A stretch of 63,833 nt of DNA from Candidatus Kaiserbacteria bacterium (GTDB lineage: Bacteria > Patescibacteriota > Minisyncoccia > Phycocordibacterales > UBA2100), in the NCBI GenBank assembly GCA_021413775.1, contig JAIOPS010000026.1, positions 1-63,833 on the forward strand. Direction: 5' to 3'. The notes beneath the pieces were generated by a model. It did no database searches. It worked only from the letters and a program-made list of their open reading frames with translations, and was not told where the DNA came from. The translations under genes and the position numbers were made by a program. Shown piece after piece: positions 31,565-49,821 of the stretch (the first letter of the stretch is position 1; every line of letters begins with the position of its first letter).

Positions 31565-31654
31565 ATCAGCATCTCAAATGATTATTCAGTAAGTGCTCTG
31601 ATTGTAGCACCGCAGTGCTTCCCCGCTGTCCCCATGCGGCATTCCGGGACCTCA

Positions 31655-34850: not shown

Positions 34851-35255
34851 ATGACAAAAATCATGCTCAGCGGAGTTGTCGTACTCGGTATTTTTTCCGG
34901 CATCCTTATGACGTACGTCGCCCTCGAACCGACCGACTCCGCACTGACACTCGAAACACCGCCGCCCTACCCCGAGAGCATCCAGGTGGCGGGTATTCTC
35001 ACATCGCGCGATACTGAGACTAAAAAAATCACGATTCTTATGGTGAGCCCGTATTTACGCTCCGAGAGAGTTCCTGTCCAAATCACCTACAACGACCAAA
35101 CTACGCTGCGCATAGCGCCGAGCGAAAGCCCACTAGAATCGCTGGCCTCAGTCGATGAGCATCGACTTGGGCCCGGCACGCGCGTTCTCGTCTTCGTGGC
35201 TCGGGAGCCCGGCCCGCTGCGTGCCGACATGTTGGTTGTGCCCGAAAATCTATGA
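34851..35255 (+). CDS. membrane-anchored hypothetical protein (134 aa)
   Basis: N-terminal TM helix. TATACT lies 7 nt upstream of the ATG. ATGA overlap with the next gene. Confidence 0.55.
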   Translation: MTKIMLSGVVVLGIFSGILMTYVALEPTDSALTLETPPPYPESIQVAGILTSRDTETKKITILMVSPYLRSERVPVQITYNDQTTLRIAPSESPLESLASVDEHRLGPGTRVLVFVAREPGPLRADMLVVPENL

Positions 35256-35701
35256 CCAGGCGCACCCTTTACCGTATAGCGTTCGTATTTCTTGCCTCTG
35301 CATTGCTGGGAACCTATGTCTTCTTATTCCTCGTTGCTCCTTTCCTTTTGGCAAAAGGTGGGAAAGTACTTTCGGAAATACGGAAAACTGTCACGACCAG
35401 CGCAAGAATGGTATATGGAACAGTAACCGCAGTTGACAGTGTGAATCAATCCATCGACATCGATATCCAGAGCCCGTTCGGGAACGGAGTGGTACACCTC
35501 CACTTGAACATCCTGCAGCCCTCTTTTATCGCGCGTCAGGACCTGGTCGCGGGACCCGAGGGAATATTTAACTCCCTCACCGAACCAAAACTCGCGCCGC
35601 TCTCTGACATGCACCCGGGAGATAGAGCAGCCTTACTGATCAGTCGCGATGCCAACCTTCGCGTCGGGACGTACTACATAATTTTCGGCAATCCCCTCTA
35701 A
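35252..35701 (+). CDS. membrane-anchored hypothetical protein (149 aa), distant paralogue of 34851-35255
   Basis: Same architecture: a TM helix plus a beta-rich domain of about 100 aa. Confidence 0.55.
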   Translation: MTRRTLYRIAFVFLASALLGTYVFLFLVAPFLLAKGGKVLSEIRKTVTTSARMVYGTVTAVDSVNQSIDIDIQSPFGNGVVHLHLNILQPSFIARQDLVAGPEGIFNSLTEPKLAPLSDMHPGDRAALLISRDANLRVGTYYIIFGNPL

Positions 35702-35879: not shown

Positions 35880-36857
35880 ATGCGTCATACAATCGCTATT
35901 CTCTCGATCATCGCAACAATGGCCGGTTTCCCGGTTCCGGCAGGAGCCCAGTGGCCCGAGCGGGCGATTAAAGTCGTGGTCCCCTTTCCGGCAGCGATTG
36001 CCTACGACAAAATCATCACGGATGCTCTCGCCGAAAAGCTCGGAGTACCGGTGTACCTCGAAATTGTCCCGGGCGCCGGCGGGACGATAGCGCTCCAGCG
36101 GATGATGGAGTCGCCCGCTGACGGATACACGCTCGGGCACGGGGCAGGTCCGAATATGATTCTGTCTTTGTGGAAACATCCTCCCTACGACCCGCTCAAC
36201 ATGACCGTCATCGGTCCCACCACCGCATTCCCTCCGCCCGTTCTGTTCGTCCGGAAGTCCTATAAAGGTTCTCTCAAGGACTTCGTGGAGGAGGCGCGCA
36301 AAACAGGATCGGAGATATCGTGGGGTTCCGGTAACCGCAATACGGCATCCATGGCCGGCTTGCAGTTCCTTTCGCTCGCGGGAATAAAAGGGGCGACACT
36401 CGTCCCCTCATCTCCGGCGAGCGGGGCAAATCAGTCACTCATCGAGGTTCTGGCCGGACGCTATGCATTCGGCGTTGAAGCCGGTTCGTTCGTGCTTCCC
36501 CAGACTGCGGAAGGGGGCGGTTTGCGGGTACTCACGGTTCTCAGCAATCGGCGCCACTGGATGTTTCCCGATGTCCCGACGCCGCAAGAAGCCGGACTGC
36601 AAGGCAACTTCGAACTGTACGTCATGAACTGTTTCTTGTCACCGAAGGGCACGCCGCCCGAAATCGTACTCCGGCTCCGGCAGGCACTCTACGAAGTGAT
36701 GAGCAATGCTGATGTCGAGAAAAGGTTGCGCGTAATCTACAATGAACCGATTGTGGTTCCTCCGGAACAGATGGAGACCCGCGTTCGGCAATGGCTTACG
36801 ACCGAAACCAATAATTGGAATCGGATTATCGAGAAAAACGGGCTCCCGCTGCAGTGA
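35880..36857 (+). CDS. Bug/TctC-family (tripartite tricarboxylate transporter) extracytoplasmic solute receptor
   Basis: Signal peptide, then WPERAIKVVVPFPAA...VPGAGGTIALQRMMESPADGYTLG, typical of the Bug family. Confidence 0.7.
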   Translation: MRHTIAILSIIATMAGFPVPAGAQWPERAIKVVVPFPAAIAYDKIITDALAEKLGVPVYLEIVPGAGGTIALQRMMESPADGYTLGHGAGPNMILSLWKHPPYDPLNMTVIGPTTAFPPPVLFVRKSYKGSLKDFVEEARKTGSEISWGSGNRNTASMAGLQFLSLAGIKGATLVPSSPASGANQSLIEVLAGRYAFGVEAGSFVLPQTAEGGGLRVLTVLSNRRHWMFPDVPTPQEAGLQGNFELYVMNCFLSPKGTPPEIVLRLRQALYEVMSNADVEKRLRVIYNEPIVVPPEQMETRVRQWLTTETNNWNRIIEKNGLPLQ

Positions 36858-36875
36858 GCGGCGGAGCATCCTCTG

Positions 36876-36907
36876 AGCCCGGCGGCATACCCGCCGGGCT
36901 TTTTTTT
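36876..36907 (+). terminator. intrinsic terminator
   Basis: 10-bp stem agcccggcgg/ccgccgggct (loop catac), then T7. Confidence 0.85.
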
Positions 36908-36912
36908 AATCG

Positions 36913-36940
36913 TTGTGCAGCTCTTATGCTTTGTTATTCT
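36913..36940 (+). promoter_or_regulatory. promoter of the 36947-38895 gene pair, apparently leaderless
   Basis: TTGTGC (36913-36918), 16 nt spacer, TGtTATTCT (-10 at 36935-36940), 6 nt, then ATG 36947. Confidence 0.45.
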
Positions 36941-36946
36941 TTCGTG

Positions 36947-37648
36947 ATGAACGGACATTCCGTATTTCCGCTGTCGTGGGGGCCCAGACCGCCTGTCGCG
37001 GACGAGTCGTACGACTGGGTTACAAACTCGTTCGGACCAAGCGACCCGCGTGCGCTCGACATTGTCCCGGTGAAATGTGACGAACCGTGGGAAACTCTGG
37101 AGACGTTCACACGGAAATGTGCACCGCATCTCGTACTGGGACTTTTTCCCGCCTTCTTGCAGATAGATACCCGCTTTCACCGCGCTATACACTCATTGGG
37201 CCTTCCCGTATGCACGATGGTTGAAGAGCAGGCGAAGATTGCGGCCGCAGTCGTCGGGCATCTGGATATAGGCGGCGTCGTACTCTTACAATCTGCGTGT
37301 ACAGTATTCGAAAGAGAGCTTGCGAAGTTTAAGCCGGCTATGACTGTCCGGTATCTGGCGATTCTCGCACCGGAAGAGCGGCCCGGGATTGCGCACGGTG
37401 AAATAGATATTCTTTTTGAACTCCATCTCGTACCGGGAATTGTCGGCCTCTTCCAATGCGAACAGGCGCGCGACAGCGCAAGGATTTTCCACCCCAATGA
37501 TCGATTCGTGTGGGAGTTTGCCGATTCGAAAGCATGGGTGAGCGACAACGACGGCCGCCGCTTCTCTCATGCGGAAATTCCTCAGCCGGTTTTTCCGCAT
37601 GAGACCCAATGCGCATGCGGGAGAAGCACATCACTCCGGCTCAATTGA
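36947..37648 (+). CDS. PaaK-superfamily-like protein lacking the P-loop (N-domain only, ends in CACGR)
   Basis: The start follows the terminator and promoter. There is no TSGTTG motif. The C-terminus ...HETQCACGRSTSLRLN resembles the CxCGR element of PaaK/F390-synthetase-type enzymes. Confidence 0.45.
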   Translation: MNGHSVFPLSWGPRPPVADESYDWVTNSFGPSDPRALDIVPVKCDEPWETLETFTRKCAPHLVLGLFPAFLQIDTRFHRAIHSLGLPVCTMVEEQAKIAAAVVGHLDIGGVVLLQSACTVFERELAKFKPAMTVRYLAILAPEERPGIAHGEIDILFELHLVPGIVGLFQCEQARDSARIFHPNDRFVWEFADSKAWVSDNDGRRFSHAEIPQPVFPHETQCACGRSTSLRLN

Positions 37649-37650
37649 CT

Positions 37651-38895
37651 ATGTCGACTCTCATCCAATTGCGCAGAAAAATTCATGAGGTACTGCATTC
37701 CCCGTATTCAGACTTCTATCGAAACCTCTACCGGGGAAAAGTGTCTCTCAACGACGGGTTCCCCGGCTCATGGGAAGAGTGGACATCACTTCCGCTGCTT
37801 ACGAAAGCTGATCTGCAACACGTGCCGTATCAGCAACGACTCTATGTCCCCAAGGAAAAAATCTATCGCATACATCAGACATCCGGGACCACCGGCGCGG
37901 GCATAACGGTACTTCCCCGGACCCGCACTCCTTACCACAAACAAGCTCTTGCGCATTTCAACGCCGCGTCCTATATCGGGTTTATGTATCCGCACAGCGG
38001 GTACGAAATGTTCACGCCCCCGGGTTCGCAATTTATCGGCGGCGACCCGGCGAGACTCCAGGCTTCCGCTGTACTTGCATCCAGAATCGCCGCAGAGGGT
38101 ATAGCCGTGGCATCGGCGTCGCTCGCCATCGAATTTGCGTCCGAGTTGCAAAAAAGCCTCGACCTTTTATCAATAAAACATATTCTTCTCCAGGGCGATA
38201 TTTGTACACGTCTGCAGCGCAAGGCCCTCTCCCGGCTCTACCCGAACGCCAAGATAACGATGATATATCTGTGCGCCGAAATGCAGGGTGTGGCCGTATT
38301 CCCCGCTCTCCCCGCTATTCCCGATGAACCGAACGGACTGGAGCCTTCAAGCGATATCTATGCAGAACTCGCGGATGAACGCGGTGGAATCATTTCCGAA
38401 CCGAACACCGAAGGAAATCTGATTGTGTCCGTTCTTCAGGACGGTATGGCACTTCCGCTACTGCGCTACACTCCAGGAGATCGGGCGACATTTCTCGTCC
38501 ACGACGAGACACGAACGGTCTTTAAAGTCGTCGGAAGAAACGTCAATGACCGCCTCCGCCTTTCTGTAGGACAAATTGTGCTCCGGGAACTCGAGCGGGC
38601 AGTTGAAATGAGCGTGCCTGACTCCGTAACGGATTTCCAGGCGACCCTGGAAGAAAGCGGAATTCCTCCCTTGCCATTTCTTTCACTTACGCTGTACGGT
38701 AGCGCCAGTTCGGCCCAAAATTCCGAAGCAATTGCCCGTCTGATACAGGAAAATCTACGCATTACACCGGAGAGGACATACGCAGACGGCATGGCGAGAG
38801 GAATATGTGCACCGATTGTCTGCACGGTTTCTGCGCCGGAGATGCACGGCGTGCCGCAAAAAAGACAGCGGCTCGTTGACGGACGAGCGCGCTGA
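37651..38895 (+). CDS. phenylacetate-CoA ligase/coenzyme F390 synthetase-like adenylate-forming enzyme
   Basis: ATG lies 3 nt after the previous stop. Motifs SPYSDFYRNLY, LLTKADL, the P-loop QTSGTTGAG and RYTPGDRA. Confidence 0.65.
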   Translation: MSTLIQLRRKIHEVLHSPYSDFYRNLYRGKVSLNDGFPGSWEEWTSLPLLTKADLQHVPYQQRLYVPKEKIYRIHQTSGTTGAGITVLPRTRTPYHKQALAHFNAASYIGFMYPHSGYEMFTPPGSQFIGGDPARLQASAVLASRIAAEGIAVASASLAIEFASELQKSLDLLSIKHILLQGDICTRLQRKALSRLYPNAKITMIYLCAEMQGVAVFPALPAIPDEPNGLEPSSDIYAELADERGGIISEPNTEGNLIVSVLQDGMALPLLRYTPGDRATFLVHDETRTVFKVVGRNVNDRLRLSVGQIVLRELERAVEMSVPDSVTDFQATLEESGIPPLPFLSLTLYGSASSAQNSEAIARLIQENLRITPERTYADGMARGICAPIVCTVSAPEMHGVPQKRQRLVDGRAR

Positions 38896-38925
38896 GTGCA
38901 CCACCGGTTTTACTCTTCGCTCTAC

Positions 38926-40035
38926 CTACATCGCAGCCTTGAGGCCGCTTTGAATTTCTTCAACAAGACCGTCGAATTGCGGGTCGAGTTCCTTGCGAAG
39001 CGGGGCCAACGCCTCTTTGAAGACATTTCTCTGTTCCGGCGTCAGCCGGATAATCGTGGTGCCGTTCTTTTCGAGGAGTGCGCGCATCGAATCTTCGTAT
39101 GCGATATTATCCTGCTTCTCCGCAACTGCGGCATCATGCACAGCGTCCTTAAGAGCAGTCTGGTCTTTCGGTGACAGAGAGTCGTAGAAGCCCGTACTCA
39201 CAAGGACAATGGTGAGCGACATACTATGATTGGTCTCCGTTACATATTTAATGAATGTCGGATTCGCCTCGAGGAGCGGTGCCAGACGACTATAGGTAGT
39301 CTCCACTGCGTCAGCAGTCTTCAACTTCACGAGATCAGGAGTGAACTCCAGTTTCGGGTCTTGCACCGGGTTAGCTCCCAGCGCGCGTGTCGTGCCCTGA
39401 ATCACCGGTCCGCCTGCCCCGCTCAAAATTTCCATGCCCTTCATATCCTCCGGCGTCAGTATCTTTTTGTCTTTGGATACGAAAATCCTGAATCCGCCGC
39501 TCATAGTAAAGGCGAGCGGTTTGTATTTGGGAATTTTAAGCGCCAGGTCATTCAGCAATTTTTCTCCGCCGGGTCCATCGAGGAACTTGAGAGCAGAATC
39601 ATAATCATCAAATAAGAAGGGCAGATCGAGCACGCGTACACTGAAAGAATACGTCCCACCGAGGTGTCCGACGTATTCTGAAATCATCCGCGGATGCCCC
39701 GGTGTCTCGCTGTCAATGTATGCAGTAAAATCATGCCCTGTAGTGTACGACGGCGGCAACACATCATCAGGCAGCACAGTTCGTTCAAGTGACACGTCTC
39801 CGCCGCTTTTTACTGAAATTTCTTTCGAGAACACGTCAGCCGCCCGTGCAAACAAAACGGTTGGCGGATGAGGCAAAAGCCAGGTAATGGCCGCCTTTGC
39901 AGCGGGCTCCTTCTGTGCGCTCGACGCAAAAGTGTTCCAACCGAACAGAAGGAGCAGGGCGCATACAACGAGAATCCCCAGATAAACGAGCAAGCGCTTT
40001 GCACTAAACTGACCAGTGTTTCCTTGCTCGGACAT
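38926..40035 (-). CDS. TRAP transporter DctP-type solute-binding protein (TM-anchored)
   Basis: ATG at 40035 and an N-terminal TM anchor. LDLPFLFDDYDSALKFLDGPGG, TPEDMKGMEI, ALGANPV and VTETNHS match the DctP family pattern. Confidence 0.7.
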   Translation of the reverse strand: MSEQGNTGQFSAKRLLVYLGILVVCALLLLFGWNTFASSAQKEPAAKAAITWLLPHPPTVLFARAADVFSKEISVKSGGDVSLERTVLPDDVLPPSYTTGHDFTAYIDSETPGHPRMISEYVGHLGGTYSFSVRVLDLPFLFDDYDSALKFLDGPGGEKLLNDLALKIPKYKPLAFTMSGGFRIFVSKDKKILTPEDMKGMEILSGAGGPVIQGTTRALGANPVQDPKLEFTPDLVKLKTADAVETTYSRLAPLLEANPTFIKYVTETNHSMSLTIVLVSTGFYDSLSPKDQTALKDAVHDAAVAEKQDNIAYEDSMRALLEKNGTTIIRLTPEQRNVFKEALAPLRKELDPQFDGLVEEIQSGLKAAM

Positions 40036-40134
40036 GTCCTTACATAATAGTACGCACGACTGCAATTGCATAGCTGCTCTGTGGATTAAGCCTTGTTCAC
40101 ATGCTGTGCTGCACGGAAATTTCAATAGGTTGCC

Positions 40135-41379
40135 TTACGAACCTACACCCTGATGACGTGCGAGCATGTCTTCAGTACTGAAAATCGGAGGTTTCTCGAG
40201 AGGGACAGTGAGCGCGTTGTAGGAATACAGCCAGCCGTTCCGGTCCTTGCCTTCGTTGGCAGCAGCGTATGCCCCTCTAATCTCCCCTTCGGTGCGAAGC
40301 TCGAATGTCGCCCGATTCGCTTCGGTGCGTTCAGTGGCATGTGCCGTTCGCGTCATCCTATTATATTGATACATGTGCAATGCTTCACTGACATCAGCGG
40401 CTTTGAGCAGTGAGCGGGTGAAAATGACCGCATCCTCCATCGCCATACCGGCGCCCTGCGCGAGGAACGGCAGCGCCGGATGTGCGGCATCACCCAAAAG
40501 AGTCGCCCGGTGCGTGCTCCAGTTGCGCGCCGGCTGCCGGCTAAAGAGTGACCAACGATAACATTGATCTTTCGAGGCCGAATCGATAATCGCCTGGATG
40601 GAGGGGTGCCACCCTTCGAAATCCTTCTTCAACGCGCTCCACGACGACTTGCGCGTCCACGCCTCCTCCGACGCCTCGGGGACCTGAACCTCGCCACAGA
40701 AATTCATGAGCGACCCGCCACGTACGTAGTAGCAGATTGCATGTGTGCCACCGCCGATAAAAATAGAGGTCACCTGATCGAGGCGGAGCTCTGCCGGAAT
40801 GTCCTCGCTCGGGACGAGAATCCGCCATGCGGTAATACCCGTATACTCCGTGCGGAAGCCTCCGATAATCTGTTTGCTGACCGCGGATTTGACACCATCG
40901 GCTCCGAGCAAGACATCGCCGCGCGCGGTCGACCCGTCCGCAAAGCGGAGCTCGACGCTGTCCGCCTGTTCTGCAAAGCCTGTCGCTTTCTTGTTTAAAT
41001 GTACCGCATCCCGTTTCAATTCACGGACCTTGGCCACCAAAAGCGCCTGCAGATCGGCACGATGAATCTGAACGAACGGAGCCCCGTGGCGCTGCAGATG
41101 TTCATCGAAAAGCGGGAATTGATGTATCACTTCCCCGGTATCATGGAGGCGAAATTCGTATCCCTTTGCGCGTACCCCGGCCCGCATGACAGCCTCTTCG
41201 AGTCCCACATGCCTCATGATATGCATGGCATTGGCCGGCAACTGCACACCGGCACCTACCTCTTTGAGCACCCGCGCCTGTTCAAACACGTCAACATCGA
41301 AACCTTCTTTCAAGAGACATGCGGCTGCGGTAAGTCCGCCGATACCCGCTCCAGCGATAAGTATTTTCTTACGTTTCAT
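40135..41379 (-). CDS. class A FAD-dependent aromatic hydroxylase (salicylate/3-hydroxybenzoate hydroxylase-like)
   Basis: ILIAGAGIGGLTAA (GxGxxG), LLGADGVKSAV (DG) and LLGDAAHPALPFLAQGAGMAMEDA (GD) motifs. Confidence 0.8.
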   Translation of the reverse strand: MKRKKILIAGAGIGGLTAAACLLKEGFDVDVFEQARVLKEVGAGVQLPANAMHIMRHVGLEEAVMRAGVRAKGYEFRLHDTGEVIHQFPLFDEHLQRHGAPFVQIHRADLQALLVAKVRELKRDAVHLNKKATGFAEQADSVELRFADGSTARGDVLLGADGVKSAVSKQIIGGFRTEYTGITAWRILVPSEDIPAELRLDQVTSIFIGGGTHAICYYVRGGSLMNFCGEVQVPEASEEAWTRKSSWSALKKDFEGWHPSIQAIIDSASKDQCYRWSLFSRQPARNWSTHRATLLGDAAHPALPFLAQGAGMAMEDAVIFTRSLLKAADVSEALHMYQYNRMTRTAHATERTEANRATFELRTEGEIRGAYAAANEGKDRNGWLYSYNALTVPLEKPPIFSTEDMLARHQGVGS

Positions 41380-41601
41380 ACAGGATTCTACCTACGGACA
41401 AAATCATCGTATCACAGGAGGCACGTGTGCCGGAGTGGCCCGGAACAAGGCATTGAAAGATTGTCTCAGGAGTATACAATTCACACATGGAGGAATCCTC
41501 TCCCAACGAAGCCTCAAGCCAAGACACCGCGAAAAGCGCTCAAACAGAGATCGCTCCCGAAGATATTTTTCACTTCGTTGCGTGCGTTGGCTTTTTTTAG
41601 T

Positions 41602-42966
41602 CTATAAGAAGCCTCGCTCCTTCCACGAATTCACACGATTCATCCCACCGCGAATCATTTCCCGGAGCATATCTTTCGTCACTGTCGGATAGACCTCTTC
41701 AATCCCTTTATGCAGTGACTGATCAGCGCCGACTCTCCCACTCCCAATGAATGAGGCTTTTTCTGGCAGCCTCCAGACACTGCCGTTGAACGGAAGGAAG
41801 TAGAGACTGAGATGCGCGTGCGCGACGAGCGCCGCTCCGAGAGGATACACGGAAAGGGCGCCGAGACCCGTGCGCGCTTTCGCAGCCTGGACCTGAAGCC
41901 CGACCTCTTCCACGAAGGTCATGAGCAGATAATCGAGCATGCTCGATCGCTGTTTCGCGACGAGCTCGCGATTGAGATGTGCTCTGCGCTGCATATCCGC
42001 AATCGTCAATACGTCCATCCAATATTGCTGGTCTCGCATCGTATAGAAACGTGTTCCTGTCTGCATCCAATAAGGCACATTGCGATCAATCGCAGTTTGG
42101 AACAGTGCTTTTCCGATCCAGCCATATCGCGCATTACTGGTCCCCACGGGCAAGAAATAAAACCGGTCCACGGGCTCTACTCGCACAAACGTATAATTTG
42201 TCATGCGGTTCTGCAGCATGTATACGATGAACTGCCGGTCGGTCGGCTGCCCGTCAAAATTCGAGAGCCGGACCGTTATTGGGCCGTGCTGCTCGATGAT
42301 GATCGATTCCTCGGCATGACGCTCAGTGTTGAGTTCCGACATCGTCATTCCGATCTCAGACAACGGATCTCCTGTCCTTCCCTCGACCGGCTGTGTCGGA
42401 GCGGGCGGATTATATTCAGACGCCGATTCGCGAAGGAGCACAGTTCGAACGGCAACGTCTTTCTCCAACGCGACGGCGTTCTGTTTTAATGTCTCAAGCG
42501 CCTGCCAAATATCGGCATGCGTAAAACTATTACCGACCTTGTCGAAAAAGATTTTCTTATCACGAATGAGAATATCGTGCGATAGCACCGCATGGTGCAA
42601 CGCCGTAAAACGGGCGACACTGATCCGATAGGTGCGCGCAGCTTTCTTCCACGACTTCAGGAGGCGCTTGGCGGCCGCTTCGGAAGGTTGCGAGAGAAAT
42701 CTCCGGCGTTCTCTTTCGCATTCGATGAACTGCTTCAGGAATGGGACGGGATAGAGGTGTGTCTGCAGCGGATGCGTCCAGAGATAAGCTTTTTTTGCAT
42801 ACGAAGGTCGGCTGAGATAGCCTCCTATCTCTTTGAGCGACGCCCTCAGCGCATCGAGTGCTACCTCACCGCGTTCAAGATCCATCCCCTCCGCAGCGAA
42901 GAGCGGATCCTTGATTACAGACTCGTAAAAGGCCTGTGATAGCTTGTTTTGCATACCCCACATCAT
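41602..42966 (-). CDS. hypothetical protein (about 454 aa), paralogue of 46339-47982
   Basis: Start trimmed to ATG 42966, because the longer ORF overlaps the Bug gene and its leader. It shares LYP(V/I)xFL(K/R)...ER.R..F(L/I)S and other blocks with 46339-47982. Confidence 0.55.
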   Translation of the reverse strand: MMWGMQNKLSQAFYESVIKDPLFAAEGMDLERGEVALDALRASLKEIGGYLSRPSYAKKAYLWTHPLQTHLYPVPFLKQFIECERERRRFLSQPSEAAAKRLLKSWKKAARTYRISVARFTALHHAVLSHDILIRDKKIFFDKVGNSFTHADIWQALETLKQNAVALEKDVAVRTVLLRESASEYNPPAPTQPVEGRTGDPLSEIGMTMSELNTERHAEESIIIEQHGPITVRLSNFDGQPTDRQFIVYMLQNRMTNYTFVRVEPVDRFYFLPVGTSNARYGWIGKALFQTAIDRNVPYWMQTGTRFYTMRDQQYWMDVLTIADMQRRAHLNRELVAKQRSSMLDYLLMTFVEEVGLQVQAAKARTGLGALSVYPLGAALVAHAHLSLYFLPFNGSVWRLPEKASFIGSGRVGADQSLHKGIEEVYPTVTKDMLREMIRGGMNRVNSWKERGFL

Positions 42967-43084
42967 TCGAAATCCAGTATAGCAGAAGTGAAATCCGTAT
43001 CCTTGAGTTCCTTTGCCATCTGACATAGATTGACGGCAGGTCGTACCGGAAACGGACGACAAAAAAGGACGAAAGGAACTCCGC

Positions 43085-44065
43085 ATGAAAAAACGTCTTA
43101 TGACGCTCGCCGCCTTCGCATTTCTGAGCGTGTTCGCAAACGCCGCACTCGCGGACGGCACAGTCCGCCTCGTCGTCCCGTTCCCCGCGGGATCGATTAC
43201 CGACATCGCGGCGCGCCTGGTTGCACCGAGGCTCTCGGACCAACTCAAGCAGCCGGTCATTATCGATAACCGCACCGGTGCGTACGGCATGATTGCCGCG
43301 CGTGATGTTGCGGTCTCGAAACCCGACGGCCTGACGCTTGGATTCAGCCCCGACGGACCGCTCGCCACCTTGCCCGCAAGCTGCATCGCCCACGGGCAGA
43401 AACTGCTCTATGACCCGACGACATTCTCCACCATCGGATTCGTCGGACGGACCTACTTCGAACTGGTGGTCAGAAAAGACCTTCCGTTCGATACGCTTGG
43501 CCAGTTGATTGAATACGCCCGTAAAAATCCGGGCAAACTCAACTTCGGCTCAGGCACCCCGTCGGCTATTCTCGGTGACGGCATTCTGAACTCGATCGAG
43601 GGCGTCAAGGTGACCGAGATACCTGCAGGACGAGGCGGCGAACCGCAGGTCATCCTTGATATCATGTCGGGGACCGTCGACGCGCTGTTCAGCACGACGT
43701 ACTCGGCTATGCCGTACCTCGAAAACGGCGCACTCAAGTCGCTGGGCACGGTCGGCTCGGTGCGGAATCCGTTCCTTCCGCGTTCTATCACGTTGGCCGA
43801 ACAAGGTTATCCGGCATTCGCTGAAGCCGAGGTCTGGTTCGCTCTTGTCGGGCCTCCGGGACTTCCGGCAAAAGAAATCGAACGCCTGAACACCGCGCTC
43901 AATAAGGCCCTCGATGACAATGAGCTGAAGGATCAGTTGGCGAAATCGCGCGTGACACTCTATTCGACCTCGCCGGCCGCTCCCGCCGCGCAGATTAAAA
44001 AGCAGATCGAGTTCACGGCCAAGCTCATCCGCGAACACGACCTCAAGGTTCCGTGCGGCAGTTGA
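43085..44065 (+). CDS. Bug/TctC-family extracytoplasmic solute receptor
   Basis: Signal peptide MKKRLMTLAAFAFLSVFANAALA, then VRLVVPFPAGSITDIAARLVAPRLSDQLKQPVIIDNRTGAYGMIAA...KPDGLTLG. Confidence 0.75.
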   Translation: MKKRLMTLAAFAFLSVFANAALADGTVRLVVPFPAGSITDIAARLVAPRLSDQLKQPVIIDNRTGAYGMIAARDVAVSKPDGLTLGFSPDGPLATLPASCIAHGQKLLYDPTTFSTIGFVGRTYFELVVRKDLPFDTLGQLIEYARKNPGKLNFGSGTPSAILGDGILNSIEGVKVTEIPAGRGGEPQVILDIMSGTVDALFSTTYSAMPYLENGALKSLGTVGSVRNPFLPRSITLAEQGYPAFAEAEVWFALVGPPGLPAKEIERLNTALNKALDDNELKDQLAKSRVTLYSTSPAAPAAQIKKQIEFTAKLIREHDLKVPCGS

Positions 44066-44091
44066 TGCCGAGACCGGCGCCTACATGAGAA

Positions 44092-44125
44092 GCGGCAGCC
44101 CCTCCCGGGCTGCCGCACTTTTTTT
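44092..44125 (+). terminator. intrinsic terminator
   Basis: 9-bp stem gcggcagcc/ggctgccgc, then acTTTTTTT. Confidence 0.8.
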
Positions 44126-44903
44126 ACCGATTCACGAGAGTGAACCCGCCGCTTGGGTCGCCTACAGGATGTGTCGCGATGTCGGTTCGGTACTGTATGA
44201 TCGGCGTCGTTAGGAGCCGTCGTTTCGTAAGCACCAGCACGCCATCTTGATGTTCGACGAGTGAATCGCCGAGCGGCGAGAAGACCGGCGCTGAGGAATA
44301 CGGCGCATCAGCAAATGCCCCCGTTTCCGGAAGTATCAGGAGCAGACGGATGCGGCGCGCAAACCTGCTATACGGCGCAAGCTGTTCGTAATTAAACGAG
44401 TCCCCTATGACCGTGATTGAGGAAATTGGTTCGGTTGAAGCTGTAAAAAACGGGAGCATTTTTTCAAGTGAACGGGAATCGGTAATGAGAGCGTCTATCC
44501 GGTACTTTGAAGCAGTGAAAACGCTCGCCTCCGCCATTTTTTCCCCTATCAGCGGAATCATGTTGTTCTCGCGGCACCACATAGATTTCTCCACCGCTTC
44601 GTATGAATTACTCAGGTAGACCATCGGTCGTCGAGCCTGCTCTCCCCACTGCTCCTTTTGTATGTCGTCGAAGCTCCACTCGGACAAAAAGACACCCTCA
44701 GGATAGCGCACAACTTTCACGAGACCGCTCTCATCCTTATATCGTCTTCGAGAAAGCGGCGTAGCAATGAATTCTGCGCGGGATACGGCCGGAATATCAG
44801 AAAAAGTTTCCGCACCGCCCCACATGTCGCGGTAAAAAGCAGAAGCATCGCTTGTGCGGACTGCGTCTACGAGATCTTGTACGGCTGATTGCGCATCGTT
44901 CAT
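44124..44903 (-). CDS. PaaK-superfamily-like protein lacking the P-loop
   Basis: ATG at 44903, 5 nt after the upstream stop. The N-terminus AFYRDMWGG...IPAVSRAEF is PaaK-like, but VRYPEG replaces TSGTTG. Confidence 0.45.
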   Translation of the reverse strand: MNDAQSAVQDLVDAVRTSDASAFYRDMWGGAETFSDIPAVSRAEFIATPLSRRRYKDESGLVKVVRYPEGVFLSEWSFDDIQKEQWGEQARRPMVYLSNSYEAVEKSMWCRENNMIPLIGEKMAEASVFTASKYRIDALITDSRSLEKMLPFFTASTEPISSITVIGDSFNYEQLAPYSRFARRIRLLLILPETGAFADAPYSSAPVFSPLGDSLVEHQDGVLVLTKRRLLTTPIIQYRTDIATHPVGDPSGGFTLVNR

Positions 44904-44907
44904 ACTC

Positions 44908-46017
44908 TTATATACGCTGGACAATCTTAGCTTCCTTCGTCTCATCCGGGAAAGGCTGTTCGACCACTACGATCTCAAGCGGCGAGAACAGGCCTTTTTT
45001 CACTAAGGTACCCAGTGTCTGAGTCGGTGTCACATACAGGCCTGTCAGAAACCGTTCATTGATTTTGCGAATTGACGCATCGCCTACTCCTCCTTTTTTA
45101 TACACTTTCATTATGAGTTTCCCCCGAGAGATGCCGCGGTCATTTTCCAGAAATGCTTCGATGCGGTAATCCTCGAACAATTCCGCGTTGGCTGTGGCAA
45201 TTCGATCAAAGAGGTCCCGCCGGAATGTTGCCCCGGCAAGGCGCACGTAGTCCCGTCCGAGACGGCCGACAATTTCAAATGTGACCGGCTTCCCGCAACG
45301 ACACGTGCCCGGCTTTATCCTGCCGATGTCGGCGAGACGATACTGACGCACCATGATTCCGAAAGCAATTGTTTTGCTCACAAGCACTTCACCCTCTCCG
45401 GTGTCATCGGGCTCGAGAACTTCTACAGTGACTCCCGAAAGCGGATGATATTGGTTTTCGGGCAAAAACTCGCACGAACGTCCGATACCGCCAATTTCCG
45501 ACGCCATGTACGCCATGCTCACTTTTGCTCTCGGGAAACTCCGGCGCAGATTCTCGTTGAGCGAAGCGGTGAGTCCCTCTCCCACGTATTCGGCAGAACG
45601 TACTCCGTCCCTGGTGCCGGCATCCATGTAGTCGGCAAGCTGCGACATGATATGCGGGTATCCGGTTATGCCGTCGGGAGCGAAATCCGACAGGAGCGGC
45701 ATGATGTCCGCAGCGTAGTCCGCCCGATCCAATGTGAGTATGCGCGCATTGAAATGGCGTGAACGAAATTTAGTGAACACGGCGTTATTGAGCGCAGTGC
45801 TCAGCGACCCCCGCGTGCTTAGCATGCGACCGGGCCCCGATGAAAAGATTCCTTGCGCCACCGGGTACTCTCTCATGGCTACGAGTACCTTGCTGCGTGA
45901 CGTGCCTGACGTCACGCCGATACCATACTGCTCGGTATCGGCCGGCGGCGTCAGAAAGAAATGCTCCAGCGTCTGCTCGGCGAGCGCGGCAAAACCATCG
46001 CGATCGATCATATGCAA
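44908..46017 (-). CDS. PaaK/F390-synthetase-like adenylate-forming enzyme (degenerate P-loop TSGTSRS)
   Basis: VTSGTSRSKV, YMASEIGG, GEVLVSKT, YRLADIGR and CRCGKPVTFEIVGRLGRDYVRLAG. Confidence 0.55.
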   Translation of the reverse strand: MHMIDRDGFAALAEQTLEHFFLTPPADTEQYGIGVTSGTSRSKVLVAMREYPVAQGIFSSGPGRMLSTRGSLSTALNNAVFTKFRSRHFNARILTLDRADYAADIMPLLSDFAPDGITGYPHIMSQLADYMDAGTRDGVRSAEYVGEGLTASLNENLRRSFPRAKVSMAYMASEIGGIGRSCEFLPENQYHPLSGVTVEVLEPDDTGEGEVLVSKTIAFGIMVRQYRLADIGRIKPGTCRCGKPVTFEIVGRLGRDYVRLAGATFRRDLFDRIATANAELFEDYRIEAFLENDRGISRGKLIMKVYKKGGVGDASIRKINERFLTGLYVTPTQTLGTLVKKGLFSPLEIVVVEQPFPDETKEAKIVQRI

Positions 46018-46047
46018 AGGGTTCTCAACTGCACGGGATGGATGTTT

Positions 46048-46281
46048 CTATTCCAGAAAGCCGCCGCACGTCACGAACAGCAGCGTGTCCGGGTTAGATG
46101 TATTCTGGACCGAAGCGGCTGTGTCCGAGTTCCCGTACCGAGCACATGCTTCACCTTGTGCAAAGGCAATTGACTGAGTCCTCTCCGAGACATACGCCGC
46201 GACAGCGCTCATGATGCCTACAAGGACCGCAAACACCGCGGCAAGCTTGGAAACAGAGGTGCGAGTGTCTTTTGCGAACAT
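46048..46281 (-). CDS. small exported/anchored peptide (77 aa, 2 Cys in mature part)
   Basis: Hydrophobic segment LAAVFAVLVGIMSAVAAYV, a possible AFA-Q cleavage site, and a C-terminus ...LLFVTCGGFLE. It is the first ORF upstream of the 46017-44124 pair. Confidence 0.4.
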   Translation of the reverse strand: MFAKDTRTSVSKLAAVFAVLVGIMSAVAAYVSERTQSIAFAQGEACARYGNSDTAASVQNTSNPDTLLFVTCGGFLE

Positions 46282-46338
46282 ACGGCAATTTTACCATACC
46301 GTTTAAGAATGCAACCATGGGCAGTGTAGAATAATTGC

Positions 46339-47982
46339 GTGACAAGACCGGATTATCGTACAGCGACATTCATCGTTATCGCCTGTTGTGCAGCAGCGGT
46401 AATGGCGGCTTTGGCGCTCTCAAACGTAAAGCACAACACTTTTTACGGCGTCAAAGATGCGTTAGCGGACAGCCATATAACCGGCGACGTATACCTTGCC
46501 GGGAGGCACTACGAGGTAAGCGGGTCTACGGTACAGGGTCCGATTGCACCCCTCTCTCCTATCCTGGAGCATGAGGCGCTCAAAGTCATGTACGCTCTCA
46601 CGCTCGCAAAGCGCACACCGGTCTTCGGTCTGGCGGGTGTCAACCCCGATTCGCTCGACGCGGCAACAGCTAAATTGGAGGCGGCGCAAAAGGACCTCAT
46701 CGGTCTGCAGAAGGACGCCGGCAACGCGAAATTAGTGAGGTCCCTCTATCCGATTGTATTTCTTCGCGCTATCTCCGCAGCCGAGCGTGCACGGCTCGAT
46801 TTTATATCATCGGCATCGGATTCAGATGCTGCCCGCTATAACGCGGCTCTCAAAAACGCGGCGCGGGAAGGCGTCATTGCGGCTGATTCTTTCAACAAAG
46901 CATTCGCTGCGGCAATCGGTTCGGCCACATTCCGAATCGGTTCGGCGTCCGGGACACTGACCGGAAAAGGCATGCTTTCTTCCATCGCCGTTATCAGCGA
47001 ACGTATGAAAGAATCATCTGCGGAAATAGACGAGCGCGAGGCATGCATGGACGGGAAGGCCCTCTGCCGGACGAACCTTTCGTTGCCCGACGCTCCGGAG
47101 ATTCCTGTTTTTCTGAACCCGGCCGCCGCAACCACACTCGCGCGGGAAGTTCTCGCGGTGTTTCAGGCTGCCATACCGCCTGCGGAAGGCGAGAATCGTG
47201 TCATAGCACTGTCATCGAGCGTATGCGTTTCGGCACTTGATGCACCGTACTTCTTCTCGCAACTCGCGCCCGTACATGCGGCGTCGGTCCCTTTCCGCTA
47301 CGTAGGCAACATTCTGTTCCTGCGTACTTCAAACGCAAATCAACCGCTCATGCAATACATGAAGAATACGCTCGGGATTACGTACAATATCTCCAACCCT
47401 TTTGTGTATTACATGTGCCCGGAAGTCGGTGACGACCTCGCCCGGCTTCTCAACGTGCAGGCGATAGCACAGTTCGCGTATATGCATCCCGATATCGCGA
47501 TAAAAAAACGTTCGGCCCTCGCGAAAGACGAAATATACGAATCGGACGCTCAGGCGTATTTGAGAGACGCTCTGGCGGAAGCACGCAGCGGCGAAACATC
47601 CCTCCCGCCGGAAGCATCTGCCGAACTGTATGCACTCGCTCTCGCGCAATACGAAAAAGGAACCGGTCTCGACATAGTCATCAAGGGAATAGCGGAAACT
47701 CTGACGAAAGACATTGAAGACTCGCGCAGAGGCGTGCCTTTCCCCTTTCTCACCGATATGAAAATATTATTCACGACACAAAGCCCGTTCCCGTCACTCT
47801 TTCTCGCCCACAACCCGTCGTTCGGCACCTCTCAAATCACGCTGCACGAATCGAACGCAGCCGAGCAGGTCGGATATTTTCGCACATTCCTGCGGTATTC
47901 CGACCTGAAATCAGAAATTCCCCGCGAGTTGTTCGTCCACGACATACGGGAACACGCAATCTTTGAAGGCGCCTCCCTCTGA
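46339..47982 (+). CDS. membrane-anchored hypothetical protein (547 aa), paralogue of 41602-42966
   Basis: GTG start 6 nt after TAGAAT, and an N-terminal TM helix TATFIVIACCAAAVMAALAL. No recognisable domain. Confidence 0.55.
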   Translation: MTRPDYRTATFIVIACCAAAVMAALALSNVKHNTFYGVKDALADSHITGDVYLAGRHYEVSGSTVQGPIAPLSPILEHEALKVMYALTLAKRTPVFGLAGVNPDSLDAATAKLEAAQKDLIGLQKDAGNAKLVRSLYPIVFLRAISAAERARLDFISSASDSDAARYNAALKNAAREGVIAADSFNKAFAAAIGSATFRIGSASGTLTGKGMLSSIAVISERMKESSAEIDEREACMDGKALCRTNLSLPDAPEIPVFLNPAAATTLAREVLAVFQAAIPPAEGENRVIALSSSVCVSALDAPYFFSQLAPVHAASVPFRYVGNILFLRTSNANQPLMQYMKNTLGITYNISNPFVYYMCPEVGDDLARLLNVQAIAQFAYMHPDIAIKKRSALAKDEIYESDAQAYLRDALAEARSGETSLPPEASAELYALALAQYEKGTGLDIVIKGIAETLTKDIEDSRRGVPFPFLTDMKILFTTQSPFPSLFLAHNPSFGTSQITLHESNAAEQVGYFRTFLRYSDLKSEIPRELFVHDIREHAIFEGASL

Positions 47983-47990
47983 CGAAGTTC

Positions 47991-49184
47991 TCATTTGGCG
48001 GCACTCCGCTGCAGTGCATCACACCGGTCTTTGAGAACGCCCGGAAGCGGCCGGCAAAACGCACCAAATTCCCTCTCATCTGTACCGAAAATATAGACTG
48101 AACGGTTCACTATGCCGGAAAGACATTCGGCAGCCAGAGATTCTGTCGGTATCGACTGACAGAACGCCATCGCACCCATAGCGTTTGTGCGGTCCTCTTC
48201 CAGTAGGATTTGTGCGACGGTCACAACGCATGACGATTGCTGGTCTTCCGGGACGTGGAGGCACGCAGAAACCGCTTTCCCCGGCTCAGCTACATATGCC
48301 CTGCCGATGGTGGAGAACTCGATGCCGTAGCAATACTTTCTCTCTGTGACGTCCGGTTCGGCAGCGCAGAGCGCCTCCACACCCGAGCCGCTCAATATTT
48401 CATCTCTGAAAAACGGCCAGCTCTCGCGGATGCAGGCACCGACATACTGTGAGTCCTCAAACGACCGGCAAAATTGTCCTACGGTCGCCTTCGTCGGTTG
48501 CACGGGCAGCTGCTGTATCATCAGGAAATCTTCCGGTTCGCGGGGACGGAATATCTGCATAAAGACTCCGTCGAAACAAAAGTGGCGGAAGTCGGAAGGA
48601 ACGGCCCGTGAACAAATCGAAAGCGCTTTCGGAATATCCGTGTTCGTAATGAAATCGAAAAGGTGACCCAGGCCGTGATAGCACCCTTCTCTGTCCAGGT
48701 CTGAAGGCGACCATTTTGCGGAGTTGCTGCACGCCAGTGAAAATTGCGGAATGAACTTCTCAATCGTCGCATCATCGAGCACTTCGCTTCTGAAGCGCCC
48801 CACGGTAACGCCGTGAACGTATCCGTTCGAGCACACACCTTCCGGCGGCGTCAGGGACAGCATGTCGACCCACTGTGCGGGATCTTCCGCAACGACGCGC
48901 TCGCCTATTTTATGTCCGAGAACATGGCAGAACTGATACGACACATCAAGCGCACGTATCTCGCGTACGACCTCGAAAATCTGTGCCACTGACATTTTCG
49001 GATACAGAGCCGGGACTTCAGCCTCGTAGCATGCGGAATGGTCAATACCGCTTCGAGCGCATGACGCCACAATCAGCCGCGCGACATTTTTTACGGAGCC
49101 CGACGCACGGAAAAACCCTACGGCGGCGGCGCTCACAGCCAGGAGACAGATAACGACAATCCCTATTTTTTTTCCGGAATACAT
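47991..49184 (-). CDS. Cys/His-rich exported paralogue P1 (subtype A)
   Basis: TM anchor IGIVVICLLAVSAAAV. Motifs YQFCHVLGHKIG, CSNGYVHG, CYHGLGHL and CFDGVFMQIF. It is the last gene of the operon. Confidence 0.7.
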   Translation of the reverse strand: MYSGKKIGIVVICLLAVSAAAVGFFRASGSVKNVARLIVASCARSGIDHSACYEAEVPALYPKMSVAQIFEVVREIRALDVSYQFCHVLGHKIGERVVAEDPAQWVDMLSLTPPEGVCSNGYVHGVTVGRFRSEVLDDATIEKFIPQFSLACSNSAKWSPSDLDREGCYHGLGHLFDFITNTDIPKALSICSRAVPSDFRHFCFDGVFMQIFRPREPEDFLMIQQLPVQPTKATVGQFCRSFEDSQYVGACIRESWPFFRDEILSGSGVEALCAAEPDVTERKYCYGIEFSTIGRAYVAEPGKAVSACLHVPEDQQSSCVVTVAQILLEEDRTNAMGAMAFCQSIPTESLAAECLSGIVNRSVYIFGTDEREFGAFCRPLPGVLKDRCDALQRSAAK

Positions 49185-49266
49185 GAATATGCAGCGAGAA
49201 TTATTGCAATCGCACTTCTCTATAGTTCTAGCACACCCGCATGACCGGCGAAGCTCACCTCACCGT

Positions 49267-49803
49267 TTATCGTTTGCGCCCTTTCCAGATGAAAAACGCG
49301 AGCGCCCCCATGAGCGCGCCGCCGAGAAAAATACCGGTGCTCGGCAAAACGCTGCCTCCCGAGCCGGAGGAAGAAATCGAAAACGGGAACGATGCGACGG
49401 CCATATCGTTACCTTCTTTGTCGCGGAAGCTTGCCTCGATTTTGTACGTACCCGCATCCAGAAAGCTATAGAGCAACGTAGTGGGTCCCAGCTGCTGCTG
49501 GCGGATGCCTGTCGCAAGCAGTGTTTTTTCGTTTCGCACGAGGCGCACCCACACGTGGTCGTACGCGGTGATATCGCTGTTCTTCTCCTCGAGCAGCTGG
49601 AAGTCAAAACGCGCGCTGAGGCCGACTTGAAACTCATTCGGGTCATACCCGATATCAATGACGTACGGCGAAGTGGTCGCGGTCCACGACAGTCCGACCA
49701 CGTGCGCCGAGGCGCGTTCGGTAACGCTCAGCAGTGCCCCGCACACTGTAAGGAGAGTGATTGCAAAATATGCGGATGTGCGGACGAGACGACGTTCTGT
49801 CAT
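49267..49803 (-). CDS. LPSTG-anchored surface protein (sortase substrate) with predicted N-terminal His after signal cleavage
   Basis: Signal peptide ...SVTERASA-HVVG. The C-terminus is LPSTG, a hydrophobic helix and KGRKR. ATG 49803 is preferred over GTG 49821. Confidence 0.7.
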   Translation of the reverse strand: MTERRLVRTSAYFAITLLTVCGALLSVTERASAHVVGLSWTATTSPYVIDIGYDPNEFQVGLSARFDFQLLEEKNSDITAYDHVWVRLVRNEKTLLATGIRQQQLGPTTLLYSFLDAGTYKIEASFRDKEGNDMAVASFPFSISSSGSGGSVLPSTGIFLGGALMGALAFFIWKGRKR

Positions 49804-49821
49804 ATGCGGAGTATATCGCAC

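Follow-up and report, generated by a model that had tools for sequence, protein, structure and literature searches.

What do receptors for extracellular solutes do in an organism in which no transporter can be recognized beside them? The question is raised by contig JAIOPS010000026.1 (assembly GCA_021413775.1) of a Candidatus Kaiserbacteria bacterium, all 63,833 nucleotides of which were analyzed and are referred to here as the window. Between positions 35880 and 47982, the window encodes two receptors of the Bug/TctC family and one of the DctP type, together with PaaK-like adenylate-forming enzymes and a flavoprotein aromatic hydroxylase, and an original prediction, made from the DNA letters, described these 12 kb as an accessory island. 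Patescibacteria (candidate phyla radiation [CPR]) rely on other cells, and few uptake systems are thought to exist in them; the region bears on the open question of how such bacteria obtain metabolites and construct their surface. On the basis of the distribution of genes across related loci, we conclude that the true unit is a cell envelope gene cluster of roughly 28 kb (from about 31.6 to 62.4 kb) that is common to Kaiserbacteria-type Parcubacteria (Patescibacteria) and that it is the receptors and the hydroxylase that vary within it. The boundaries proposed earlier are not those of the unit, since conserved genes extend to both sides of them.

Receptors without neighboring permease genes

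The three receptors are present where they had been predicted, as indicated by Pfam, NCBIfam and solved-structure matches. TctC1 (35880-36857, plus strand) and TctC2 (43085-44065, plus strand) scored 108 and 158 bits, respectively, against PF03401 (cutoff, 27 bits), covering profile positions 5 to 274 and 2 to 273 of 274, and each gave full-length matches to 11 solved Bug/TctC proteins. TctC1 best matched 6hke (E value, 3e-23), and the closest solved match of TctC2 was the terephthalate-binding protein TphC (8hka; E value, 2e-42). The DctP-type receptor (38926-40035, minus strand) scored 128 bits against PF03480 (cutoff, 23.4 bits) and 94 bits against the NCBIfam model NF037995 (TRAP_S1; cutoff, 50 bits), was under the cutoff of TIGR00787 (90.5 versus 175 bits), and had 4n15 as its best solved match, with an E value of 4e-18. 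For each of the three proteins, the alignment with solved Bug/TctC or DctP structures covers most of the sequence.

Export signals had been claimed for all three receptors, and N-terminal signals or an anchor were indeed seen in the translations. The TctC signals read MRHTIAILSIIATMAGFPVPAGA/QW and MKKRLMTLAAFAFLSVFANAALA/DG; that of TctC1 is a cleavable-type signal peptide, and DctP, with its start at 40035 as proposed, carries an N-terminal transmembrane (TM) anchor. By reading of the sequence, TctC1 has PFPAAIAYD in place of the N-terminal PF..GG..D stretch with its usual GG turn. In DctP, the arginine of LAFTMSGGFRIF (the GGFR stretch) aligns with an arginine in 4n15, is a candidate for the carboxylate-binding residue, and is present in five of seven DctP proteins of the cluster type. 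Both TctC genes are monocistronic. A strong GC-rich hairpin terminator with a T-run lies directly 3' of TctC1 (36875-36901), and a terminator of the same type (44092-44116) lies between the convergent genes TctC2 and PaaKNdeg (see below), where it could act in both directions.

No gene for a transporter membrane subunit was found in the window, as the original prediction had stated. The Pfam scan gave no match to TctA (PF01970), TctB (PF07331), DctQ, or DctM among the window open reading frames (ORFs) scanned, which comprised all but a few later-recognized genes, two solenoid paralogues among them. Searches by tblastn with TctA/TctB-like proteins (from loci L050, L077, and L036) found nothing in the window or in the cluster loci, and those with other polytopic neighbor proteins from related loci found nothing in the window. 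A six-frame hydropathy scan of the window revealed only two polytopic proteins, neither of which had been noted in the original prediction or resembles a transporter subunit: a GT2 glycosyltransferase and a 636-amino-acid (aa) membrane protein (32839-34749, minus strand) with at least 10 helices and a tetratricopeptide repeat (TPR) tail. The latter was considered as the missing permease and rejected because it has no similarity to TctA or DctM and because of its TPR tail; its comparison with TctA, DctM, and MBOAT gave no match even at an E value of <10, and it had no significant Pfam or NCBIfam match. Seven cluster-type loci were analyzed in the same respect, and no DctQ-, DctM-, or TctA-like permease was encoded within 4 kb of DctP in any of them; the only polytopic proteins there were a homologue of the 636-aa protein and a 763-aa protein with 14 TM helices. 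This 763-aa protein, which lies beside DctP in L015, was considered as a fused DctQM and rejected because it has no Pfam match and its central soluble domain looks like a methyltransferase. The orphan status of the receptors thus holds for the contig and for the related loci. A literature search for TTT (tripartite tricarboxylate transporter), TRAP (tripartite ATP-independent periplasmic) or DctP receptors in Patescibacteria or Kaiserbacteria found nothing relevant.

Members of the same DctP clade, recognized by the motif LAFTxSGG, recur in metagenome loci (L019 to L094; GC content, 0.28 to 0.64), including low-GC contigs, and the one representative examined had no signal peptide. A TctC-like neighbor is present in 23 of these loci and TctA in 7 (Pfam E value, 1.5e-33); other recurrent neighbors are two SGGxDS (PP-loop-like) families, a GNAT protein, and an AMP-binding enzyme. 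In most of the loci, no polytopic protein is encoded within 4 kb. The possibility that the low-GC contigs are phages was rejected, as they were not phage-like by tblastn. An association of DctP with TctC and TctA would be unusual.

The hydroxylase gene (40135-41379, minus strand) lies 99 nucleotides (nt) 5' of DctP in the same orientation; the interval contains no terminator-like site, and the two genes are probably cotranscribed, in agreement with the earlier proposal. The class A flavoprotein assignment also held: the protein scored 79 bits against PF01494 (cutoff, 22 bits) over profile positions 3 to 348 of 349 and carries the fingerprints GAGIGG, GADGVKS, and GDAAHP. Its solved relatives include decarboxylative vanillate 1-hydroxylase, 6-hydroxynicotinate 3-monooxygenase (NicC), and 3-hydroxybenzoate 6-hydroxylase (E values in the PDB of 3e-60 for 8x38 and 7e-59 for NicC); the nearest of these act on hydroxy-aromatic acids, several with decarboxylation. 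At the substrate level, the protein was under every curated cutoff, the best model being NF006021 for 3-hydroxybenzoate 6-monooxygenase (256 versus 459 bits). The gene was found in none of the related loci sampled, being private to this genome, and is 43% identical to alphaproteobacterial plasmid genes (Rhizobium and Celeribacter).

A conserved cluster of PaaK-like enzymes and envelope proteins

The 12 kb form the left, variable end of an envelope neighborhood that is specific to the lineage. Judging from gene content across loci, the conserved core appears to consist of pairs of a PaaK-like enzyme and a dead fragment (PaaK-A with the fragment "small" and PaaK-B with PaaKNdeg), a microprotein, an anchored protein of a 540-aa family (U540a), and an array of solenoid proteins with cupredoxins. 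DctP appears to be a frequent variable member, and the two TctC genes and the hydroxylase appear to be additions in this genome and a few relatives.

Related loci were found through the neighbors of PaaK-A, a genome scan with a five-sequence PaaK alignment, a look-up of solenoid homologues, and a scan of metagenomes with an alignment of DctP. At least 12 Kaiserbacteria-type loci have the PaaK-like genes, the 540-aa family, and DctP in a common gene order; genes of the PaaK-like, partner, 540-aa, and DctP types are so arranged in L002, L003, L007, L013, L015, L016, L018, and L098. The genome scan gave L007 (LaPlata_bin-2928), in which synteny extends to the flanking genes for the Ig-like protein and the 636-aa membrane protein; the solenoid homologues gave L011, L013 (Candidatus Kaiserbacteria GCA_016217925.1), L095, L096, L097, and L098; and the metagenome scan gave L015 to L018 and L025. 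Three modules recur: the microprotein gene, PaaK-B, and PaaKNdeg, sometimes followed by a second PaaK-B and the paralogue U540b; U540a, the microprotein gene, and the third subfamily, PaaK-C, with DctP and small alongside; and TctC, small, and PaaK-A, with DctP alongside. For example, L003 (GCA_021733385.1) has the order DctP, TctC, small, PaaK-A, solenoid, while L002 carries two DctP genes, small, PaaK-A, two 540-aa genes, PaaK-B, and eight solenoid genes.

Receptors and ligases are repeatedly neighbors in these loci. DctP is present in approximately 9 of 13 informative loci and lies no more than two genes from a PaaK-like gene and/or small in the window, L003, L007, L013, L015, L016, L018, L025, and L098; in L002, the tandem DctP pair is a few genes away from them. 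The nearest relatives of the window DctP (38 to 42% identity) sit in the same type of cluster. TctC is present in four loci (the window, L003, L007, and L098) and adjoins small/PaaK-A in L003 and PaaKNdeg in L098 and the window. A TctC1 homologue with 33% identity occupies the same position in L003, and the gene that adjoins the PaaKNdeg homologue in L098 is TctC2-like. Across the loci in which receptor and ligase genes are adjacent, the orthologues are only 25 to 42% identical.

This gene order, shared with relatives up to and including the flanks, was one of several observations that did not agree with a horizontally acquired island. The GC content of the window is flat (0.53 to 0.60), and that of 35.9 to 48 kb (0.53 to 0.56) is like that elsewhere; the tetranucleotide distance of the region is within 1 standard deviation (SD) of the contig mean, and its GC content at third codon positions (GC3) and codon usage are inside the range of the housekeeping genes, with TctC2 having the highest GC3 of the region (0.716). 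In these four measures, the region matched the rest of the contig. No integrase or transposase was matched by Pfam among the window ORFs scanned, in a search that did not include flanking direct repeats, and the sole tRNA gene in the window (19514-19588) is 16 kb away from the region. Only the hydroxylase and the sporadic, monocistronic TctC genes behave as accessory genes. Conservation in relatives with a known function had been named as the case against an island; this case applies in part, through the conservation of the uncharacterized cluster.

Four ORFs had been assigned to the PaaK superfamily, and all four are related to it, but only two encode intact enzymes. PaaK-A (37651-38895, plus strand), a cytoplasmic protein of 414 aa, retains the TSGTT P-loop, Y..AE, RYTPGD, the GRxxD hinge, and the C-terminal lysine and has weak NCBIfam and PDB matches to PaaK. 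PaaK-B (44908-46017, minus strand), which does not have the first ~45 residues of the family, matches PDB PaaK 9s3l (E value, 4e-6) and retains TSGTS, YMASE, GRLGRD, and the C-terminal lysine, with the glycine of the RYRTGD motif replaced by alanine. The adenylate-forming core motifs are conserved in both enzymes and in 11 homologues. PaaK-A and PaaK-B scored 32.6 and 35.8 bits against the curated PaaK models TIGR02155 and NF041878, the cutoffs of which are 646 and 700 bits; on these scores, both enzymes are superfamily members but not PaaK, and neither substrate nor acceptor can be transferred from PaaK. Families of a paa catabolic context (PaaABCDE, PaaG, PaaZ, and others) had no Pfam match among the window ORFs scanned. 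PaaK-A, PaaK-B, and PaaK-C form three lineage-specific subfamilies. A word-based search of 5.8 billion proteins found only seven relatives of PaaK-A, the contigs of which carry the same neighbors, and orthologues of PaaK-B are present in L002, L016, L018, L096, and L097.

The other two ORFs probably encode pseudoenzymes, one beside each enzyme. PaaKNdeg (44124-44903, minus strand) is a predicted catalytically dead, truncated PaaK-like N-domain (hhalign probability, 96%; E value, 1.3e-9) that has kept the N-terminal FYR microdomain and lost the P-loop; its orthologues (41 to 50% identity) directly follow PaaK-B in L016, L018, L096, and L097. The fragment small (36947-37648, plus strand), directly 5' of PaaK-A, has neither the P-loop nor the C-terminal domain and aligns to PaaK residues 119 to 271 (hhalign probability, 87.6%; E value, 3.5e-6). 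This signal was seen only when a nine-sequence profile was compared with a PaaK-like profile; single-sequence and three-sequence tests were negative, and no Pfam or NCBIfam match was obtained. It adjoins PaaK-A, PaaK-C, and/or DctP in the window, L002, L003, L007, L013, L015, L016, L018, L025, and L098.

A 77-aa microprotein, which was missed in the original prediction and is unannotated, is encoded 30 nt 5' of PaaK-B (46048-46281, minus strand). A single TM helix at the N terminus (N-in/C-out) is followed by an extracytoplasmic tail that ends in LLFVTCGGFLE. Using tblastn and a motif scan, we identified 17 distinct members of this family, with [ST]CGG and 1 to 4 further residues at the extreme C terminus; L097 and L098 encode two further members, and L096 encodes a CSG variant. 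By the positive-inside rule, 11 of 12 members have an extracellular tail. There are two tail subtypes, ..IFF[ILV][ST]CGGIY, which tracks PaaK-C, and NPNK.[LF]F[IV][ST]CGGF.[ED], which tracks PaaK-B. All members lie beside PaaK-like genes or on short Kaiserbacteria-type contigs, and among the other DctP loci (~0.7 Mb in total) the only matches were on two short, cluster-type contigs. The family accompanies PaaK-like genes in 15 related loci and recurs in every cluster-type locus. No Pfam or NCBIfam match was found for the microprotein.

The two uncharacterized proteins that had been regarded as paralogues were confirmed as such by blastp. U540a (46339-47982, plus strand) is an N-terminally anchored extracytoplasmic protein of 547 aa with four conserved cysteines; U540b (41602-42963, minus strand), called as a 453-aa gene on an identical Logan contig, has neither the TM anchor nor the conserved cysteines, and an orthologue with 30% identity follows the PaaK-B genes in L016. 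An exhaustive search of representatives gave 429 cluster representatives of the 540-aa family at an E value of ≤1e-3. The family had no Pfam or NCBIfam match, and its profile found no relative among PDB sequences. The AlphaFold2 model of U540a has a predicted local distance difference test (pLDDT) score of 94.7, and a Foldseek search against the PDB gave nothing below an E value of 0.3, the matches to helical-repeat and membrane proteins being nonsignificant; the predicted fold is one not seen in the PDB. In some genomes, the 540-aa family is naturally fused to a Cys-rich solenoid domain, which links the two families.

To the right, the cluster continues with nine paralogous, membrane-anchored, Cys/His-rich alpha-solenoid proteins (47991-59515, minus strand), among which are genes for a 184-aa anchored protein (49267-49821, minus strand) with no Pfam or NCBIfam match and for a cupredoxin (52225-52623, minus strand). 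There are 274 solenoid homologues, all annotated as hypothetical; those with a named source belong to Kaiserbacteria and other Parcubacteria. In the aligned subfamily (query, 49822-51012), 18 cysteines, arranged in pairs, and five histidines are invariant, and the AlphaFold2 model is all-alpha (pLDDT, 94.4), with only nonsignificant Foldseek matches in the PDB and no significant Pfam or NCBIfam match for the family. Fusions with cupredoxin or with the 540-aa family occur in some relatives. The array is colocated with PaaK-like or 540-aa genes in L002, L003, L007, L008, L011, L013, L015, L016, L018, and L096 to L098. Beyond it lie three paralogues (59539-60651, 60624-61205, and 61162-61767, minus strand) that share a C-terminal domain (GSGTFVIDHP.DP.NK..) and have no family match, the first of which contains ~130 extremely tyrosine-rich residues of GYYYGYAQ repeats, and a second cupredoxin gene (61808-62356, plus strand; Cupredoxin_1). 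This trio and cupredoxin set adjoins the Cys-rich array in L013 and L096.

On the left flank, an Ig-like surface protein (31655-32821, minus strand; Pfam Ig-like match) and the 636-aa protein precede two small N-terminally anchored proteins (34851-35255 and 35252-35701, plus strand) with no Pfam or NCBIfam match. Left-flank orthologues are at the same position in L007, L018, and L013; in L007 and L018, the 636-aa protein and the two small anchored proteins keep their synteny with the cluster, and L008 encodes a similar pair.

The remainder of the window carries housekeeping genes of a reduced-genome type (ThrRS, PheRS, GyrB, EF-Ts, S2, a release factor, and L25), a split transketolase, RpiB, and GAPDH (30560-31564, minus strand), and the named best homologues of its lineage-specific proteins belong to Candidatus Kaiserbacteria and other Parcubacteria (Patescibacteria). 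Tetranucleotide composition deviates by >2 SD from the contig mean only at 3000 to 9000, where six ORFs have no Pfam match and the GC content reaches 0.60, and at 58000 to 63000, where repeats of tyrosine codons explain the deviation at least partly. Long antisense ORFs (30567-31592, 49183-49836, 51462-51971, 52042-52524, and 60991-61737, all plus strand) overlie real minus-strand genes, namely, those for GAPDH, the 184-aa protein, a solenoid paralogue, the cupredoxin, and the repeat-domain paralogues; such ORFs mislead gene calling by longest ORF in a genome of 55% GC.

Possible roles of the cluster

The aromatic or organic acid character that had been suggested for the region is consistent with the solved relatives of TctC2 (TphC) and of the hydroxylase (enzymes of hydroxy-aromatic acids) and with the PaaK-like nature of the ligases, and a pathway of adenylation plus hydroxylation is plausible. 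The reading that we prefer, tentatively and at somewhat less than even chances, is that anchored receptors capture aromatic or organic carboxylates that are then adenylated by the cytoplasmic pairs of PaaK-like enzyme and pseudoenzyme. Tethered or secreted receptors would bind extracellular carboxylic acids, probably aromatic or hydroxy-aromatic; the acid would enter the cytoplasm by a membrane step not encoded in the window; and the PaaK-like enzymes would form the acyl-adenylate and hand the acyl group to an acceptor. In this genome, the hydroxylase cotranscribed with DctP would also hydroxylate, and possibly decarboxylate, the acid. The family assignments, motifs, topologies, native composition, lack of permease genes in 64 kb, and recurrence of the gene set in relatives are observations; we infer from the gene content the substrate class, the direction of flow, any physical link between receptor and ligase, and the acceptor.

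Several points weigh against this proposal. The flow is derived from genes, and no permease was identified. The scores of the ligases (33 to 36 versus 646 to 700 bits) do not allow the substrate or acceptor of PaaK to be adopted, and the ligases, lying beside many extracytoplasmic proteins, may serve envelope chemistry rather than acid assimilation. Both TctC genes have their own terminators and so may be functionally independent of their neighbors. In addition, L096 and L097 carry the microprotein/PaaK-B/PaaKNdeg module and solenoid genes with no receptor within 21 kb, which indicates that the core does not need receptors. L095 has three solenoid genes and a cupredoxin gene only, beside the same housekeeping block, with no PaaK, 540-aa, or receptor genes within 10 kb.

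An alternative that gives weight to envelope chemistry is an acyl relay, in which the acid is activated in the cytoplasm, the acyl group is held outside the cell on the Ser/Thr-Cys of the microprotein tail, and the 540-aa protein then hands it on, the recipient being a surface polymer or the solenoid proteins, with the receptors supplying or sensing the acid. Its logic would resemble that of the Dlt pathway of teichoic acid D-alanylation: like dltX beside dltA, the microprotein gene directly adjoins the gene of an adenylating enzyme, both in the window and in 13 related loci, and the tail is external with an invariant end motif. The 540-aa protein is anchored outside, usually adjoins the microprotein gene, and is solenoid fused in some genomes; at the edge of L013/L014, the cluster has an MBOAT gene beside it, and in L096 and L097 the gene next after the PaaK-B module is of the GDSL/SGNH type. 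However, the tail motif is [ST]CGG and not the FxYxxF acyl-shuttle motif of the DltX mechanism (PMC12148441), and some members have no tyrosine at all; most members have an upstream cysteine to which the external one is likely disulfide bonded; the 540-aa model does not correspond to any known transferase fold; and the 64-kb window yielded no MBOAT, carrier, or SGNH protein, in profile scans that for a carrier covered ORFs of at least 90 aa. We regard such a relay as unlikely. It is decidedly unlikely, in our estimate, that the core is an undescribed envelope modification machine in which an acid captured by the permease-less receptors from the host or the environment is adenylated inside, relayed across the membrane to the tail of the microprotein, and attached to surface proteins or polymers, functionally parallel to Dlt/MBOAT-SGNH systems and mechanistically independent of them. 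A modified-peptide pathway, in which PaaK-like enzymes alter the C-terminal core of the microprotein before its export as a disulfide-looped surface or signaling peptide that is bound or processed by the 540-aa protein or the receptors, would account for the approximately one-to-one occurrence of PaaK-B/C and microprotein genes and for the two tail subtypes that track two enzyme subfamilies. An asparagine-synthase-like gene directly after the PaaK-B/U540b module in L016 (19558-20928, plus strand) and a YcaO-nitroreductase pair ~9 kb from the solenoid genes in L095 (1141-3338, plus strand) also fit it, but each occurs in one locus only, the N-terminal segment of the microprotein resembles a signal anchor and not a leader peptide, no dedicated protease or exporter is present, and PaaK-like enzymes are not known to modify peptides; the pathway seems to us very improbable.

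Two further explanations concern the receptors rather than the core. They may be ordinary transporter parts that dock to TctAB or DctQM (or TctA-type) permeases encoded elsewhere, as is the case for most Bug proteins of Betaproteobacteria; their adjacency to PaaK-like genes would then have no functional meaning. In Bordetella and Cupriavidus, orphan Bug/TctC genes far outnumber tctAB loci, and there are up to at least 40 matching places per Cupriavidus replicon; both TctC genes of the window are monocistronic with their own terminators; and because distant members of the DctP clade sit with TctC (23 loci) and TctA (7 loci), not with DctQM, a remote TctA-type partner is conceivable. Set against this are the absence of a permease gene from the 64 kb and from within 4 kb of DctP in seven loci, the small and usually transporter-poor genomes of the Kaiserbacteria group, and the adjacency of DctP to PaaK-like genes or small in about nine loci at 25 to 42% identity, which is hard to explain without selection. 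This explanation, too, we consider improbable, if by no means negligible. The import of a catabolic island from Proteobacteria, a form of the horizontal acquisition suggested in the original prediction, draws on the hydroxylase, which no related locus encodes and which has 43% identity to plasmid genes of Rhizobium and Celeribacter, and on the GC3 of TctC2 (0.716). For the region as a whole, the hydroxylase excepted, it is largely refuted and extremely unlikely if recent, given the lack of a compositional break, the lack of mobility genes among the window ORFs scanned, and the conserved order of genes, most of which are common to relatives. A recent transfer of TctC2 from Betaproteobacteria was likewise rejected, as TctC2 is only 34 to 37% identical to betaproteobacterial Bug proteins and no closer to them than to its homologues in related Kaiserbacteria-type loci (31%).

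In L096 (19115-20857) and L097 (19833-21203), the GDSL/SGNH lipase-like gene and a fatty acid desaturase gene are convergent with the microprotein/PaaK-B/PaaKNdeg module.

Thus, receptors of the TRAP and TTT types occur in a Kaiserbacteria-type lineage with no recognizable permease nearby, repeatedly beside adenylating enzymes and a large, lineage-specific block of surface proteins. If they are truly permease-less, solute-binding proteins would have been recruited to a nontransport role in a minimal organism; if TctAB or DctQM is encoded elsewhere in the genome, the receptors are ordinary, and interest moves to the uncharacterized core cluster. The three receptors, the two enzyme/pseudoenzyme pairs, the microprotein family, and the two abundant families with unmatched models provide testable handles.

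Comparison with known systems

Solved examples of Bug/TctC receptors include BugD, BugE, TphC, and AdpC. The window TctC proteins share with the orphan Bug/TctC receptors of Bordetella and Cupriavidus the PF03401 fold, a signal peptide, a monocistronic gene, and the absence of an adjacent tctAB. Unlike those receptors, they are encoded by a parcubacterium and not a betaproteobacterium, in two copies only, among PaaK-like and uncharacterized envelope genes, and the PF..GG..D stretch usual in the family is altered in TctC1. The DctP-type receptor resembles TRAP DctP proteins in its above-threshold PF03480 and TRAP_S1 matches and in having an arginine that aligns with an arginine of its best solved match; however, it is TM anchored and not free in the periplasm, has no DctQ or DctM gene nearby, and adjoins PaaK-like genes, and the distant members of its clade sit with TctC and TctA rather than with DctQM.

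The best PDB and NCBIfam matches of the window ligases are to PaaK and PaaK-like ligases (F390 synthetase-like enzymes, NatL2/AjiA1, and the DVU_1553 family), with which they share an architecture of ~400 aa, the P-loop, YxxxE, RYRTGD, the GRxxD hinge, and the C-terminal lysine. They differ in scoring 20-fold under the curated cutoffs, in the lack of paa genes, and in the pairing of each with a dead fragment; in addition, PaaK-B and PaaK-C genes adjoin a microprotein gene. The hydroxylase shares PF01494 and the FAD and NAD(P)H fingerprints with the decarboxylating group A hydroxylases (vanillate 1-hydroxylase, NicC, and 4-hydroxybenzoate 1-hydroxylase) and with 3-hydroxybenzoate 6-hydroxylase, aligning with these structures over ~350 residues at E values of 1e-44 to 3e-60, whereas its gene lies in a Parcubacteria genome, with DctP, and with no ring-cleavage genes nearby.

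The Dlt pathway (DltX, DltA, the MBOAT protein DltB, the carrier DltC, and the SGNH protein DltD) has in common with the cluster a single-pass microprotein with an external C-terminal motif, an adenylating enzyme, and an anchored extracytoplasmic protein. In the window, however, the motif is [ST]CGG and not FxYxxF, the enzyme is PaaK-like and not DltA-like, and the fold of the anchored protein is unmatched.

In conclusion, the region is made up of known parts, namely, Bug and DctP receptors and PaaK-like ligases, set in an uncharacterized, lineage-conserved envelope cluster, and it is the cluster that is the more novel object.

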